Shown piece after piece: positions 38,975 to 56,265 of a stretch of 64,000 bases of DNA. The stretch covers positions 320,001 through 384,000 of the forward strand of contig OZ219785.1 of the NCBI GenBank assembly GCA_964291285.2, in the 5' to 3' direction. Each line of letters starts with the position of its first letter. The first letter of the stretch is position 1. The notes beneath the pieces were generated by a model. That model was not told where the DNA came from. It ran no database searches and saw nothing but the letters and a program-made list of their open reading frames with translations. The position numbers and the translations under genes are program-made. Source of the DNA: Alphaproteobacteria bacterium (lineage in GTDB: Bacteria > Pseudomonadota > Alphaproteobacteria > Bin95).

Positions 38975-39906
38975 CGGCGGGGGCCGCCCGGCCGCCCTCG
39001 CTTCCCGAACCGTTCGCCGAAAGGCTGGTCGTCGCCGCCGATGACGGCCTTGAGCTCAGCCTCTACCGCCTGCGCGAAGGGAAGGATGGCGCGCCCGCCC
39101 TGCTCTGGGGCCACGCAAACGGCTTCCCGGCCGGCGGCTACGCGCCGCTGCTCCGCCTGCTGGCCCGCGACTTCCGCGTCTATGCCTACGATGCGCGCGG
39201 TCATGGCGGATCCGGCCTGCCCGACGGCGAGCCGGATTTCGACCGCTACGCCGCCGATCTCGATCTCGTCTGCCGGGCGGTCCAGGCGGATGCGGGCGGC
39301 GCGCCGCTCTTCTATGCCTCGCACAGCTTTTGCGGCGTGGCCGGCCTCAGGCTCGCCGGCGTGTTCGGACGCGAGCCGTGGGACGCCTTCACCGCGTTCG
39401 AGCCGCCGATATCCCCGCCCCTCGACCATCCGGCCAGGGACTTCTCGGTGGCGGCGTCGCTGGAACTGTCCGGCATGGCGCGCCGCCGCCGGCCGCGCTG
39501 GGCCGACCCGGAAACCTTCCGGCTGGCGCTCGCCGAACGGGACGCCTATCGCCGCTTCGACGCGGAAGCGCTTGCCGGCCACTGCCGGGGGTCCCTGCAC
39601 CCGACGGATGCGGGCGACTGGCAGCTTGCCTGTCCCGGGCCGCTCGAGGCGCATAACTACGAGGCGGCGCTCGACCCTTCGACCTATGAGGGGCTTGCCC
39701 GCATCGCCCGGCCGGTCACCTTCGTGGCGTCGGTGGACGGCGGCGCAACCGGCAATCCGAGCTGGGCGGCGACCGTGCAGGCCGATTGCGCCGAACGGGT
39801 GCCGAACGGACGGCTTGCGACATTTTCGCACGCCGGCCACCTGGTGCCGTTCGAGGACCCGCCGCGTTGCGCTGCGCAGATATGTCTTATGCTCGCTGAA
39901 GACTGA
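38971..39906 (+). CDS. Alpha/beta-fold hydrolase
   Basis: HANGF, DARGHG, SHSFCG nucleophile elbow, GHLVPFE. Confidence 0.88.
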   Translation: MTAGAARPPSLPEPFAERLVVAADDGLELSLYRLREGKDGAPALLWGHANGFPAGGYAPLLRLLARDFRVYAYDARGHGGSGLPDGEPDFDRYAADLDLVCRAVQADAGGAPLFYASHSFCGVAGLRLAGVFGREPWDAFTAFEPPISPPLDHPARDFSVAASLELSGMARRRRPRWADPETFRLALAERDAYRRFDAEALAGHCRGSLHPTDAGDWQLACPGPLEAHNYEAALDPSTYEGLARIARPVTFVASVDGGATGNPSWAATVQADCAERVPNGRLATFSHAGHLVPFEDPPRCAAQICLMLAED

Positions 39907-39966
39907 ATTTTTTCGGAAAATTTATACTATTGGACTTGTCAGGCGCGACATTCCGTCCTATCTTCT

Positions 39967-40076
39967 GGCGAAAGGCTGCACGCGGCTTTCTCGCCGCCTT
40001 GGGACTCCCCCTCTCGTCCCGCAGTCTTCGACGCCCTGAAGCGCCCGGTCTCCCCCCGACCGGGCGCTTCTCCTTT
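39967..40076 (+). ncRNA. Candidate three-hairpin small RNA with C-rich loops
   Basis: TTGTCA-N17-TATCTT promoter (39936-39964). Hairpins at 39967-39995 and 40001-40020 (loop UCCCCCUCUC), then a 13-bp stem at 40038-40070 (loop UCCCCCC) followed by UCCUUU. Confidence 0.5.
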
Positions 40077-40108
40077 CCGCGGGGCAGGCGGAGCGGTAGG
40101 GTAACGCC

Positions 40109-40759
40109 ATGAGTGAGATTCTCGTCGTCAATCCCAACAGCACCGAGGCCGTGACGGAGGCCATCGACCGGGCGGCGGAGCCCTTCCGCGCCGCCGGCGG
40201 GCCGGAAATCCGGGCGGCGACCAACCGCGCCGGCCCGCCCGGCATCCAGAGCCAGGGCGACGCCGACGGGGTCGTGCCGCATTTGCGCGCGATCGCGGCC
40301 GACAGCGATGCGGACGCGCTTGTGCTCGCCTGCTTTTCGGACCCCGGCCTGCATGTGCTGCGCGAGGACACGGGCAAACCCGTGATCGGCATCGCGGAGG
40401 CCGGCCTGCTGACGGCGCTGACGCTCGGCGAGCGGGTGGGCGTGCTCGCCATCCTCGCGCGCTCGGTGCCGCGGCATTTGCGCTATGTCCGCCAGATGGG
40501 CCTCGATGCGCGCTTCGCCGGAGACCGGCCCGTGGACCTCGAAGTGGTCGAGCTCGCGGACCCGGTCCGCACCCGCGCCCGCCTGCTGGAGACCGGCCGC
40601 GAGCTGCGCGACCGCGACGGCGCCGATGTCCTGGTGCTGGGCTGCGCCGGCATGGCGGACCAGCGCCCGGCGCTCGCCCAGGCGCTCGGCATGCCGGTGG
40701 TCGAACCCGTCCAGGCCGCCATCGGCATGGCCGTCGCCTCCGTCATGCGGGGATGGTGA
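40109..40759 (+). CDS. Asp/Glu/hydantoin racemase family protein
   Basis: VVNPNST, LACFSDPGL, PVIGIAEA, VLGCAGMA. Confidence 0.92.
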   Translation: MSEILVVNPNSTEAVTEAIDRAAEPFRAAGGPEIRAATNRAGPPGIQSQGDADGVVPHLRAIAADSDADALVLACFSDPGLHVLREDTGKPVIGIAEAGLLTALTLGERVGVLAILARSVPRHLRYVRQMGLDARFAGDRPVDLEVVELADPVRTRARLLETGRELRDRDGADVLVLGCAGMADQRPALAQALGMPVVEPVQAAIGMAVASVMRGW

Positions 40760-40889
40760 GATAATTCGCACGGCGCCCGCCGGTGCTGGCGCCCCTTCGG
40801 GCCCCCGTGAATCGCGAAGCCCGTCTTCGCCCGTTCGACGCCGCGACCGAACGGCAACGGGCGCGCCGGCCCGTTCGCATCTCCCATTT

Positions 40890-41495
40890 CCACGAAACAT
40901 GAAATATTTCCAATATTTTTGACTTCTGTTCGTGTTTTGATCTTGACATCTGGCGGATTGTGATATGATGGTCCCCAGGGAAGCGGACTCCGGAGCCGCG
41001 TCCCCGGGTGCCGCGCGGCCGAGCGACGCCGGTTTCTGAAAACCCGTGAGAAGCCGACGGGAGACGTGCGTCCTGCGTCTCGCGCGCGCAATCAGGCGCG
41101 CGAACCGCGCCGGCGCCGACACGCGCCCGGGCAGGCGCGGGCGCCCGCGCAGGATACGCGCGGAAAAGGGACCCCCTCCCCGTCGGAGAAGAGAGGAGAG
41201 ACGATGACCGCAACCGACCCCCAACTGGCCGCGATGCCGGCCGAAAAGCTGGCACCCGCCGCAGAGGCCCTTGCCAGCGCCTATGCGGAGGATAGGAGCG
41301 CAGCGCCGGCGGGTGGCAGCGCATGCTCCTCTTCCGCCCGGCGGGGGAGGAGGTCGAAGAGCGGAAAGCCCCATGCCCGAAACGGCTACAGCATATGAAC
41401 CCTGCGCATGCAGAACATGACATCTCATGACATATCGGAACACATGGCGAAGGAGGCCGGGCGCGCCTCATGACAAAACATGACATCCCATGACA
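40890..41495 (+). repeat. Dispersed element copy 1 (AT-rich promoter-like start, GC-rich conserved block, small ORF, CATGACA arrays)
   Basis: Homologous to the reverse complement of about 55745-56265. CATGACA at 41416, 41426, 41469, 41479 and 41489. The 5' boundary is approximate. Confidence 0.8.
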
Positions 41496-41579
41496 CGCAG
41501 GGGGTTCCTGCGACCGGGCGGCTTCGCGCGCGCCGCTTGCCAAACCGGGCCGGACGGAGTATCCCGCCGGCCTCGGCGA

Positions 41580-41654
41580 GACCCCATCGTCTAGAGGTTA
41601 GGACACCACCCTTTCAAGGTGGAGACACGGGTTCGATCCCCGTTGGGGTCACCA
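41580..41654 (+). tRNA. tRNA-Glu(TTC)
   Basis: Acceptor GACCCCA/TGGGGTC, anticodon arm CCACC-CTTTCAA-GGTGG, GGTTCGATCCC T-arm, encoded CCA. Confidence 0.97.
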
Positions 41655-41688
41655 CGCGGCACACCCCTCGCCAGGAGGCGCAACCCCC

Positions 41689-41910
41689 ATGTCCGAGCGG
41701 ACCCTGTCCATCGAATACTGCGTGGCTTGAAACTACTAGCCGCGCGCCCTCCGTGCGAGGGACATACTGCAGGCGAACACCGGCCTTGCCGTGGAACTGG
41801 TCAAGGGCGGGGGCGGCGTCTTCGAAATCCGGCGGGACGGCGCGACGCTGTTCTCCAAGAAGGCGACGGGGCGCTTCCCCACCGACGAGGAATTGCACGC
41901 GCTGCAATAG
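41689..41910 (+). CDS. SelW/SelT/SelH (Rdx) family selenoprotein with in-frame TGA (Sec) and an additional in-frame TAG
   Basis: AGGAGG RBS. Reads MSERTLSIEYCVA[TGA]NY[TAG]PRALRARDILQANTGLAVELVKGGGGVFEIRRDGATLFSKKATGRFPTDEELHALQ*. The IEYCxxU, GGVFEI and FSK..GRFP motifs are Rdx hallmarks. Absent from the ORF track; could be a recent pseudogene. Confidence 0.85.
41747..41761 (+). promoter_or_regulatory. Putative bacterial SECIS hairpin
   Basis: CCCTC-CGTGC-GAGGG; the apical loop begins 21 nt after the TGA and has G at loop position 2. Confidence 0.55.
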
Positions 41911-41915
41911 CCCGC

Positions 41916-43334
41916 ATGCGCCGCCCGACATTTCCCGCATGGCTTCTGGCGGCGCTGCTGCTGGCCGCCCAGCCGGCGCATGCCCATGAACCGCGCGCGA
42001 CCGTCCCGGGTTCCGCGGAACAGCTGCGGCTCTCCTTCGCTCCAGTGGTGCGCGCCGTCCGGCCTGCGGTGGTCAACATCTTCACGACCGGGCGCAGGGT
42101 CGAGCGCCGGTCGCCCTTTTCCGGCTTTCCCTTCCTCGACGACCCCTTCTTCCACCGCTTCTTCGATTTCGGCGACCGGCGGCGGCAGCGGGCGCAGAAT
42201 TCGCTCGGCTCCGGCGTGGTCGTCGGCGCGGACGGGCTGATCGTGACCAACCACCACGTCATCGAGAATGCCGGCGCAATCAAGGTCGTGCTCGCCGACC
42301 GGCGCGAGTTTCCGGCAAAGGTCGTGGCTTCCGACGAACGCAGCGACCTCGCCCTCCTCCGGGCCGGGCTCGACGGCGCAACGCTCCGGCCGGCGGTACT
42401 CGGAGACTCGGACGGCCTCGAAGTCGGCGACCTCGTGCTGGCGATCGGCAATCCCTTCGGCGTCGGCCAGACGGTGACCTCCGGCATCGTCTCGGCGCTG
42501 GCGCGCACCGGCCCCTCGGCGCGCGGCCCCGGCTATTTCATCCAGACGGACGCCGCCATCAATCCCGGCAATTCGGGCGGCGCCCTGGTCAATCTGGCCG
42601 GCGAGGTCATCGGCGTGAACACGGCGATCTTCTCCCGCAGCGGCGGCTCGCACGGCGTCGGCTTCGCCATCCCGTCCAACCTCGTGCGGGTCATGGTCGA
42701 GACCGCCCGGAGCGGCGGGCGCGTCGTCCGGCCCTGGCTCGGCATCGAGAGCCAGCCGGTGACGCCCGACCTCGCGGACACGCTCGGCCTTGCCCGGCCG
42801 GGCGGCCTTCTGGTCCGGGCCGTGCGCCCCGACGGGCCGTTCGCGCGCGCCGGCGGGGCGCGGGGCGACGTCATCCTGTCAATAGACGGGCACCCGGTAC
42901 TCGACAGGGCGGCGCTGCGCTTCCGCATGACCACGCTCGGGCCGGGCGGCGAGGCCGAGTTCGGGATCGTCCGGCGGGGCGAGGAGGCGGTGCTCTCCGT
43001 TCCGGTGGAGCTTCCGCCGGAAGTGCCACCGCGCGACCGCAGGCAATTGCGGGGGCCGCATCCGCTCGCCGGCGCCGAAATCGTCAACCTGTCGCCGGCG
43101 GTGATCGAGGAGTTCGCCTTCAGCGGGCCCGGCGCCGGCGTGATGATCGCGGAGGTGGCGCGCGGTTCGCCCGCCCGGCGGCACGGCTTCCGGCCGGGCG
43201 ACCTGCTCCGCAGCATCGACAGGCAGGAGCCGGAGAGCACGGCCGAGGCGGAGGCCATTTTGCGGGCTGGCGAGCGTCCGTGGCGCATTTCGATCTGGCG
43301 CGGCGGGCGTTCGCTGACGACAATCTTCCGATGA
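41916..43334 (+). CDS. Do/DegQ-family periplasmic serine protease
   Basis: Signal peptide, SLGSGV, TNHHV, IGNPFG, QTDAAINPGNSGG, two PDZ domains. Confidence 0.95.
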   Translation: MRRPTFPAWLLAALLLAAQPAHAHEPRATVPGSAEQLRLSFAPVVRAVRPAVVNIFTTGRRVERRSPFSGFPFLDDPFFHRFFDFGDRRRQRAQNSLGSGVVVGADGLIVTNHHVIENAGAIKVVLADRREFPAKVVASDERSDLALLRAGLDGATLRPAVLGDSDGLEVGDLVLAIGNPFGVGQTVTSGIVSALARTGPSARGPGYFIQTDAAINPGNSGGALVNLAGEVIGVNTAIFSRSGGSHGVGFAIPSNLVRVMVETARSGGRVVRPWLGIESQPVTPDLADTLGLARPGGLLVRAVRPDGPFARAGGARGDVILSIDGHPVLDRAALRFRMTTLGPGGEAEFGIVRRGEEAVLSVPVELPPEVPPRDRRQLRGPHPLAGAEIVNLSPAVIEEFAFSGPGAGVMIAEVARGSPARRHGFRPGDLLRSIDRQEPESTAEAEAILRAGERPWRISIWRGGRSLTTIFR

Positions 43335-44620
43335 CCGACTCGCTGTTCCAGGCCGCAGGGCTCGCGGACGAGGCGCCCCGCCCGCTCGCCGACCGGCTGC
43401 GTCCGGCGTCGCTGGGCGAGGTCGTCGGGCAGGACCATGTGCTCGGGCAGGACGGACCGGTGGGGCGGATGCTGGCCGCCGGCAGGCTCGCCTCGCTCGT
43501 CTTCTGGGGGCCGCCCGGCTGCGGCAAGACCACGATCGCGCGCCTGCTGGCGGGCGCCGCGAACCTGCACTTCACCGCGCTCTCGGCCGTCTTTTCGGGC
43601 GTGGCCGACCTGCGCAAGGTCTTCGCCGAGGCCGAGAGCCGGCGCGAGGCCGGCCGGGGCACCATGCTGTTCGTGGACGAGATCCACCGTTTCAACCGCG
43701 CCCAGCAGGACGGGTTCCTGCCCTGGGTCGAGAACGGCACGGTGGTGCTGGTCGGCGCGACCACGGAGAACCCGTCCTTCGAGCTGAACGCGGCGCTGCT
43801 CTCCCGCGTCCAGGTGCTGGTGCTGCGCCGGCTGGACGAGGACGGGCTGGAAACCCTGTTGCAGCGTGCGGAGGCGAGCCTGGGTGCGCCGCTGCCGCTG
43901 GATCGCGGCGCGCGCACGGCGCTCAAGGCGCTGGCGGACGGCGACGGGCGCTACCTGCTCAACCTCGCCGAGGAGGTCGCCGGCGGGCCGGTGCTCGATG
44001 CGGCCGGCCTTGCCCGCGTGGCCCAGCGCCGGGCGCCGGTTTACGACAAGGACCGCGAGGGCCACTACAATCTCATCAGCGCGCTGCACAAGTCGCTGCG
44101 CGGCTCGGACCCGGACGCCGCGCTCTACTGGCTCGCGCGGATGCTCGACGGCGGCGAGGACCCCCGCTACATCGCCCGCCGGCTGGTCCGTTTCGCTTCG
44201 GAGGATGTGGGGCTTGCGGACCCGGCGGCGCTGCCCGCCGCGCTTGCCGGCTGGGAAGCATATGAACGCCTCGGCAGCCCCGAGGGCGAGCTTACGCTGG
44301 CCCAGACGGTGCTGCATCTGGCGACGGCACCGAAGTCGAACGCCGCCTATGCCGCTTTCGGCGAGGCCATGCGCGCCGCGCGGGAGACCGGGTCGCTCAT
44401 GCCGCCGATGCACAGCCTGAACGCGCCCACCCGGCTGATGAAGGACCTGGGCTACGGCGAGGGCTATGCCTACGACCACAATGCCCCGGACGCCTTCGCC
44501 GGCGTCAACTACTTCCCGGACGGCATGGCGCGCCAGCAGTTCTATCGCCCCGAGGGCCGCGGCGCGGAGGCGGACATCGCGGAGCGTCTGGCCGCCTGGG
44601 CCCGGCGGCGGCAGGCGTGA
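43331..44620 (+). CDS. rarA: Replication-associated recombination protein A
   Basis: PLADRLRP, WGPPGCGKTT, DEIHRFN, ATTENPSF, ISALHKSLRGSD, APKSNA. Confidence 0.96.
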   Translation: MTDSLFQAAGLADEAPRPLADRLRPASLGEVVGQDHVLGQDGPVGRMLAAGRLASLVFWGPPGCGKTTIARLLAGAANLHFTALSAVFSGVADLRKVFAEAESRREAGRGTMLFVDEIHRFNRAQQDGFLPWVENGTVVLVGATTENPSFELNAALLSRVQVLVLRRLDEDGLETLLQRAEASLGAPLPLDRGARTALKALADGDGRYLLNLAEEVAGGPVLDAAGLARVAQRRAPVYDKDREGHYNLISALHKSLRGSDPDAALYWLARMLDGGEDPRYIARRLVRFASEDVGLADPAALPAALAGWEAYERLGSPEGELTLAQTVLHLATAPKSNAAYAAFGEAMRAARETGSLMPPMHSLNAPTRLMKDLGYGEGYAYDHNAPDAFAGVNYFPDGMARQQFYRPEGRGAEADIAERLAAWARRRQA

Positions 44621-55744: not shown

Positions 55745-56265
55745 TGTCATGAGATGTCATGGTTTACCGTGAAGGCCTGCGGGACACCACGCGATATGTC
55801 ATGAAATGTCATGTTTTGCATGCGCATCGAGCATGTCCCACGGCTGAATCAGGCATGAGGTGGTCGTTTCGGGCGGAGCGTCCGGGTATTCCATCCCGTT
55901 TCCCGGGTTCTGCATCTTCGGCATCGGCTTCTCCTCTCGATCCATCTTCGTTCCAATGTTCCTGCCGCTGGCTCTTCAAGGCGGCGGGACCCTAATTCGC
56001 GCGTAATGTGCGCGGGCGCCCGCGCCTGCCCGTGCACGTTCCGCGGCGGCGCGAATCGCGCGCCTGATTGCGCCTGCGCGCGCGAGGCCGAACACAGGGC
56101 ACACGTCTCCTGCCCGCTGCCAAGGGTCTCCTGGCACCGGCATGGAAGACGAAGCAGCCTCCGGATGCCGCTTTCTTCCTCCTGTCCCATACTATCATGG
56201 ATTTCCGGGGATTTGCTCTTATCAGAGAAATAATTCTGGATTAGTGAACAAAAACACTTCCCCGA
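55745..56265 (-). repeat. Dispersed element copy 2 (inverted relative to copy 1)
   Basis: TGTCATG at 55745, 55755, 55797 and 55807. The reverse complement of 55985-56110 aligns by eye with 41060-41175 (GGAGACGTG..CTCGCGCGCGCA..CAATCAGGCGCGCGA..GGGCAGGCGCGGGCGCCCGCGCA..TACGCGCG..AGGG). Confidence 0.8.

Follow-up and report, generated by a model that had tools for sequence, protein, structure and literature searches.

A SelW-like selenoprotein gene interrupted by a private TAG: a probable recent nonsense mutation in an uncultured alphaproteobacterium

Gene Order Around the selW-like Frame

Four genes, encoding a tRNA-Glu(UUC), a SelW-like protein, a DegQ-like protease, and a RarA-like ATPase, follow one another in the same orientation at positions 41580-44620 (+) of the window, which is the whole stretch of 64,000 nucleotides that was analysed. 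The features identified in this region are the following:

41580..41654, + strand: tRNA-Glu gene, anticodon UUC (ARAGORN; Rfam tRNA, 68.1 bits)
41673..41678, + strand: Shine-Dalgarno-like AGGAGG, 10 nt 5' of the ATG (read from the sequence)
41689..41910, + strand: SelW-like (Rdx family) selenoprotein gene of 73 codons with a premature TAG inside (Pfam/NCBIfam, orthologues, pN/pS)
41728..41730, + strand: TGA, the selenocysteine codon and U of CVAU, codon 14 (conserved in relatives)
41737..41739, + strand: TAG, premature stop, codon 17 (private to the genome studied)
41747..41761, + strand: SECIS hairpin, stem CCCUC/GAGGG, apical loop CGUGC (covariation)
41908-41910, + strand: final TAG of the selW-like gene
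41916..43334, + strand: gene for a DegQ/HtrA-type periplasmic serine protease of 472 aa (Pfam Trypsin_2, E 1.8e-35, and two PDZ domains)
43280..44620, + strand, true start uncertain: rarA/mgsA-type AAA+ ATPase gene (ORF list; Pfam MgsA_C, E 1.3e-65 on 43355-44620)

The start codon of the selW-like gene is located 34 nt past the end of the tRNA-Glu, and both are probably co-transcribed. At the other end, only 5 nt separate the selW-like stop from the degQ ATG (41916), in front of which inspection of the sequence reveals no Shine-Dalgarno motif at the usual distance. The upstream tRNA-Glu, the AGGAGG, and the final stop placed 5 nt before degQ had all been read in the initial annotation, and they are borne out. 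Judging from this layout, translational coupling of the selW-like gene to degQ by termination-reinitiation is plausible, and if such coupling exists, the premature TAG would abolish it. Neither promoter-like nor terminator-like sites were found in 41200-42100. The N-terminus of the DegQ-like protein resembles a signal peptide.

This arrangement is shared by several members of the genus. An identical tRNA sequence is found upstream of the gene in the congeners L002, L013, and L017, and the full order (tRNA-Glu, 34 nt, selW-like gene, 5 nt, degQ) is present in L002 and L013. The 5-nt spacing between the selW-like gene and degQ is seen in L001, L002, and L013; in L017 the tRNA is present, but the next ORF, as defined by a simple ORF rule, begins 107 nt past the stop. 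Eleven of the 16 congeners have PAC as the three residues past the stop. In contrast, 11 loci from the other two genera have different flanks, with neither an upstream tRNA nor a downstream protease start, the downstream ORFs of these genera having been judged by their N-terminal sequence. The head-to-tail order suggests a tRNA-mRNA co-transcript specific to the genus of the genome studied.

On the opposite strand, a 518-aa ORF at window positions 39887-41443 (-) gave no Pfam match at E-values up to 0.001, and in a genome of 68% GC it may be an artefactual frame on the strand opposite real genes. In addition, the heptamer CATGACA is clustered, with one copy every 10-11 nt, at window positions 41416-41495 (+) and 55745-55813 (-). 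Genome-wide, 901 copies of this heptamer are found against approximately 312 expected, with 101 clusters of at least three copies, and in the sequencing runs the depth of the bins holding these clusters is approximately 10 to 70 times that of their flanks. These clusters look like a dispersed intergenic repeat family.

A SelW-like Selenoprotein Gene Conserved Across the Order

As judged from its sequence, the locus at 41689-41910 is a genuine SelW-like (Rdx, CxxU) selenoprotein gene of a known family. The frame reads MSERTLSIEYCVA-TGA-NY-TAG-PRALRARDILQ...GGVFEI...LFSKK...GRFP...LQ-TAG. For the profile searches, the 73-residue frame was read through both stops, with U entered as C and an X at the TAG. 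This query matched the Pfam family Rdx (PF10262; E 1.1e-15, 58 bits vs. a cut-off of 22.6) and NCBIfam TIGR02174 (CXXU_selWTH; 50 bits vs. a cut-off of 34.2), and it missed the equivalog NF041051 (SelTWH_Campy, of the Campylobacter type; 80.6 bits vs. a cut-off of 88), to which the protein is related only. The assignment to SelW/Rdx made in the initial annotation, with all its coordinates, is therefore upheld by the sequence, Pfam, and TIGR02174. The same applies to the placement of the TGA at the U of CxxU, as CVAU aligns with the CTQC of the Cys-form homologue G053, in such a way that the TGA occupies the position of the second, redox Cys.

With bacterial SelW-like selenoproteins the gene shares a length of about 70-75 residues, an N-terminal CxxU motif with UGA, and the GGxFE and GRFP blocks. 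The SelW-like family is reported to outnumber every other selenoprotein family in the Sargasso Sea data set, and its function is described there as unclear, although the motif suggests redox chemistry (PMC1088965). Unlike the family at large, the clade examined here carries its own signature, U-N-Y-E-P-R-A-x-R-A-R-D, and in one genus the tRNA-Glu/degQ setting. Because of the UGA, the gene escapes standard gene callers.

The order was sampled through 37 genomes, which belong to one family and three genera, and the gene was found in 34 of them. Each of the 33 relatives (33 of the 36 other genomes) holds exactly one TGA, and within the order the combination of TGA and TAG appears only in the genome studied. 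Consequently, the frame is open apart from the Sec codon in 33/33 orthologues of the order but not in this genome, whose gene is a disrupted member of the family; a TAG three codons past the Sec codon, in this genome only, sets it apart from the bacterial SelW-like family. A wider search matched 37 of 61 genomes, with one TGA in 35 relatives and none in G053.

The pooled pairwise pN/pS of the 16 congeners is 0.12 for codons 1-13 and 0.27 for codons 18-73, a value that applies among congeners, since the 3-10 differences to the nearest of them in codons 18-73 are too few for the branch of this genome itself. The latter figure indicates that, in the genus, the stretch past the TGA is translated and evolves under purifying selection.

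The SECIS Hairpin

The stem of the hairpin (CCCTC/GAGGG) begins 16 nt after the UGA and 7 nt after the TAG, and its loop starts 21 nt after the UGA. In alignment A1, which comprises 25 distinct sequences and excludes L026 as well as the identical rows L006, L007, L008, and L010, all 125 cells of the hairpin (100%) are paired, with compensatory changes in two of the five pairs (U-A/G-C, 14:11; C-G/U-A, 24:1). The covariation score was reached by 0/500 shuffles, and slid controls were 31-69% paired. The switch from U-A to G-C entails a Leu to Arg change on one side of the stem and a synonymous change on the other, and this amino-acid cost points to selection on the RNA.

Folding of the single sequence gave a different hairpin (CGCGC/GUGCG) as the minimum-free-energy fold, with z-scores near 0. 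This second hairpin has been rejected, as three of its pairs fail to form in 1, 10, and 11 of the 25 sequences and it shows zero covariation. The SECIS-like hairpin initially read at 41747-41761 is thus backed by the comparison, though it is not the minimum-free-energy fold. It lies directly 3' of the UGA and has a small apical loop with a G, the form described for bacterial SECIS elements (PMC1088965) and shared with the bacterial SelW-like genes, whose element is found just past the UGA. An Rfam scan of 41000-42500 by E-value returned the tRNA only, with no match to a SECIS family.

Selenocysteine Decoding and Further Candidate Selenoproteins

The initial annotation had pointed to the Sec machinery as a check on Sec decoding, and selA, selB, selD, and tRNA-Sec are all present in the genome studied (G000, whose contigs are numbered with a C). 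A single tRNA-Sec was detected by ARAGORN over the whole genome (C3:2163017-2163111). On C3, selA (535 bits) lies next to selB (436 bits), whereas selD (277 bits) is on C2; all three genes are above cut-off and free of internal stops. The selD match (C2:1357981-1358862, -) sits in an open frame of 747 aa, which makes a fusion of SelD with a further domain probable.

A crude search for frames of coding-like composition that a single TGA interrupts yielded 334 candidates, 44 of which have a Cys no more than four residues from the TGA. In six candidates picked by hand, a Pfam domain spans the TGA in 6/6 cases, and according to these matches at least six other candidate selenoprotein genes are present in the genome:

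C1:458732-459253: UGSC-family candidate, Pfam PF24696 over one in-frame TGA, E 9e-48
C3:1369294-1369815: UGSC-family candidate, PF24696 over one in-frame TGA, E 1e-39
C2:1143091-1144812: UGSC-family candidate, PF24696 over one in-frame TGA, E 7.5e-28
C1:315950-317080, C4:194074-195156, and C2:781855-782607: two CMD/AhpD-like candidates (CVYU) and one glutaredoxin-DinB candidate (UTSC), with one in-frame TGA each, within the domain match

One of the CMD/AhpD-like candidates falls below the Pfam cut-off (20.7 vs. 23 bits), and the candidate at C1:315950-317080 is located approximately 3 kb before the start of the window. A Sec-containing FdhA was not found among 14 matches, all of which lack internal stops and are below cut-off. 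The Sec machinery stays useful to the organism because of these other candidate genes.

Origin of the TAG at Codon 17

The initial annotation had asked whether the TAG is conserved, and it is not: all relatives have a sense codon at this position. In 17 congeneric sequences (16 congeners and one metagenome contig), codon 17 is GAG in 15, GAA in one, and AAG in one, and it encodes Glu in both other genera. The T at 41737 is the sole base of the 222-nt gene that is seen in no congener, while the nearest sequence, L002, differs at 5/222 positions. The earlier reading that the gene shows no decay downstream of the stop therefore holds. Pattern scans of public collections with an N at position 41737, from which the record of the window itself was excluded, matched 15 loci, with 14 G, one A, and no T; they correspond to one metagenome locus (G) and to 14 genome loci that come largely from the assemblies of the orthologue search and are not independent of it.

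The presence of the T has also been verified in sequencing runs. Runs X1, X2, and X3 each provided a contig of 1023 nt that covers 41607-42300 with 0 differences and 0 gaps, at depths of 150.6, 152.4, and 429.1, respectively. The T is present in all three, and the read error considered in the initial annotation was not encountered; no T>G difference was tallied in any run. As these runs share a single study and host label, and the assembly may itself derive from one of them, they establish the T as real and dominant and not its age or spread, and a GAG minority in X1-X3 is possible because contigs drop minor alleles. In run X7, from another study and host label and approximately 95% identical, the contigs meet exactly at 41738, and no row for 41737 appears among the 40 of 58 listed, so that X7 counts neither for T nor for G at this base. 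The X7 haplotype is not among the fetched loci, the best of which agrees at 16 of 28 marker positions.

Comparison of these sequences makes it highly probable that a G-to-T change at 41737 converted GAG (Glu) into the TAG, as a very recent nonsense mutation private to this genome. A nonsense mutation from GAG was among the options first listed, and the GAG codon of the relatives supports it. The lack of any other change in the gene points to a very recent date for the mutation, although the intact remainder of the gene, which fits recency, fits equally well a continued function by means of read-through.

Termination at UAG and Loss of the SelW-like Protein

The decoding capacity of the genome has been surveyed for UAG. 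No CUA-anticodon tRNA was found among the 56 tRNAs reported by ARAGORN for the whole genome, and no tRNA-Pyl was reported; the best match to the PylS profile TIGR02367 (PylS_Cterm) reaches 25.5 bits vs. a cut-off of 178. Release factor RF1 (prfA) is present, with 492.6 bits, above cut-off. Among the stops of 2029 long coding-like ORFs, TGA accounts for 1428, TAG for 467 (23%), and TAA for 134. Coding-like extensions past the stop were observed for 54/467 TAG, 119/1428 TGA, and 6/134 TAA, in a crude test in which adjacent genes in the same frame can explain the slight excess at TAG. ARAGORN also reported, besides the normal tRNA-Cys(GCA), an 83-nt tRNA-Cys at C1:205124-205206 (-) whose anticodon, ACA, is unusual; this gene may be degenerate or may have been called in error.

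Since RF1 is present and a suppressor tRNA was not found, the UAG should terminate translation. In the relatives, SelB and tRNA-Sec would decode UGA-14 as Sec, guided by the hairpin, to give a CxxU thioredoxin-like protein of 73 residues. In the genome studied, a single G-to-T would have made a TAG of the GAG at codon 17, and a ribosome that passes the Sec codon would meet the UAG three codons further on, where RF1 would release a peptide of 16 residues, or of 13 residues wherever Sec insertion fails. The thioredoxin-like protein would no longer be made in meaningful amounts, and the gene would be at the first step of pseudogenisation, which amounts to the loss of a selenoprotein. Termination at the UAG is presumably efficient and the SelW-like function lost. 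A second Rdx gene was not found in the genome studied, and for this reason the function is probably lost and its loss would be complete. As a counterpoint, complete loss is unusual in an order in which 33 of the 36 other genomes keep the gene.

Taking these data together, the most probable reading, with a probability of approximately 80%, is that of an ordinary SelW-like selenoprotein gene that carries a very recent, lineage-private nonsense mutation, as a first step of selenoprotein loss.

Alternative Readings of the Second Stop

It is possible, but unlikely, that the gene is still partly functional, with a near-cognate tRNA reading through UAG-C, perhaps aided by the SECIS hairpin or SelB, and with selection keeping the frame. 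The downstream frame without any further lesion and the dominance of the TAG allele in three runs would fit this explanation, as would the tolerance of codon 17 to change, this position being variable in the family (L in the Cys-form homologue, K in one congener). Moreover, the stop lies 7 nt 5' of a conserved, stable hairpin, and in some viral systems a stop just upstream of a stable hairpin stimulates read-through. However, the absence of decay is expected anyway for so recent a change, RF1 is intact, and no other genome of the order has a stop at codon 17. Sec insertion and stop read-through are both inefficient events, and the output of the gene would be the product of the two. The slight TAG excess in the genome-wide extension test (54/467) is not diagnostic.

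A more elaborate form of this idea, which is quite improbable, is that the UAG beside the SECIS element would be read at a useful rate, keeping both the SelW-like protein and the flow of ribosomes into degQ dependent on selenium, or else that the 16-residue CVAU selenopeptide would itself be the product. If true, this would represent a natural case of a SECIS element affecting the decoding of a second, different stop codon.

The frame has also been proposed, in the initial annotation, as a selenium-sensing leader of degQ. In such a pathway, ribosomes that get past the UGA would re-initiate at degQ, and the TAG would uncouple or retune degQ-rarA. The 5-nt gap is real, the degQ ATG lacks a Shine-Dalgarno motif at the usual distance, no terminator-like site lies between the selW-like gene and degQ, and the arrangement is kept in congeners. 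Nevertheless, the proposal is weakened by the restriction of the selW-degQ juxtaposition to one genus, with different contexts in the 11 loci of the other genera, and by the conservation of the frame as a protein there and in the genus (pN/pS 0.27, Rdx domain), which does not fit a pure leader role. This leader function is accordingly considered to have a low probability.

A sequencing or assembly error, with G as the true base, is very improbable. The genome is metagenome-assembled, in five contigs, with an estimated contamination of 4.77%, and a single-base difference from all relatives has the look of an error; on the other side, the contigs of three runs were built independently, and they show 0 differences over 41607-42300 at depths of 150-430.

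Finally, programmed double recoding, in which UGA would encode Sec and UAG pyrrolysine or another amino acid through a dedicated system, can be practically dismissed: it was suggested by two different in-frame stops within four codons of an otherwise intact and conserved frame, and users of both Sec and Pyl exist, such as a symbiotic deltaproteobacterium (PMC1976440), but the TAG is found in 0/33 orthologues of the order, no CUA or Pyl tRNA was found, PylS is below cut-off, RF1 is present, and TAG ends 23% of the long ORFs. The initial annotation, which had placed this explanation in its headline, had itself named a sense codon in close relatives as evidence against it, as well as a search for a CUA-anticodon tRNA and for the pyl genes; all relatives have a sense codon there, and neither a CUA-anticodon tRNA nor a PylS above cut-off was found. 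Like the dual Sec/Pyl symbiont of Olavius algarvensis (PMC1976440), as it is described there, this is a marine bacterium of the symbiont type that has several selenoprotein genes, and its locus has a UGA and a UAG inside one frame. Unlike in that symbiont, pylS is below cut-off, there is no CUA tRNA, and the TAG appears in no orthologue, so the locus works nothing like it. An expansion of the genetic code is not shown, and the headline of two recoded stops is to be dropped unless expression data say otherwise.

Implications for Selenoprotein Loss

The preferred reading, a selW-like gene recently disabled by a nonsense mutation, can be compared with the published picture, in which selenoprotein loss is described as frequent (PMC1794560). 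Table 4 of that study (Zhang, Romero, Salinas, and Gladyshev, 2006) includes SelW-like proteins among the families lost in sister organisms. The present case resembles those losses in that one species of the 37 in the order is disabled and others keep the gene. It differs from them in the stage observed, as the losses in the cited study were inferred from the absence of genes, whereas here the loss would be seen at its initial mutation, the SECIS element and the remainder of the gene being untouched. It also differs in taxonomy, given that the losses reported in that study fall only in Firmicutes/Clostridia, Deltaproteobacteria, and Actinobacteria, and the organism studied here is an alphaproteobacterium.

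With regard to annotation, the analysis adds a gene conserved in 34 of the 37 genomes of an alphaproteobacterial order that is uncultured and apparently associated with sponges. To this are added no fewer than six other candidate selenoprotein genes that lack annotation in the genome studied. Concerning the biology of the family, the locus would represent a selenoprotein loss caught at its first mutation, which is consistent with the picture drawn in PMC1794560.
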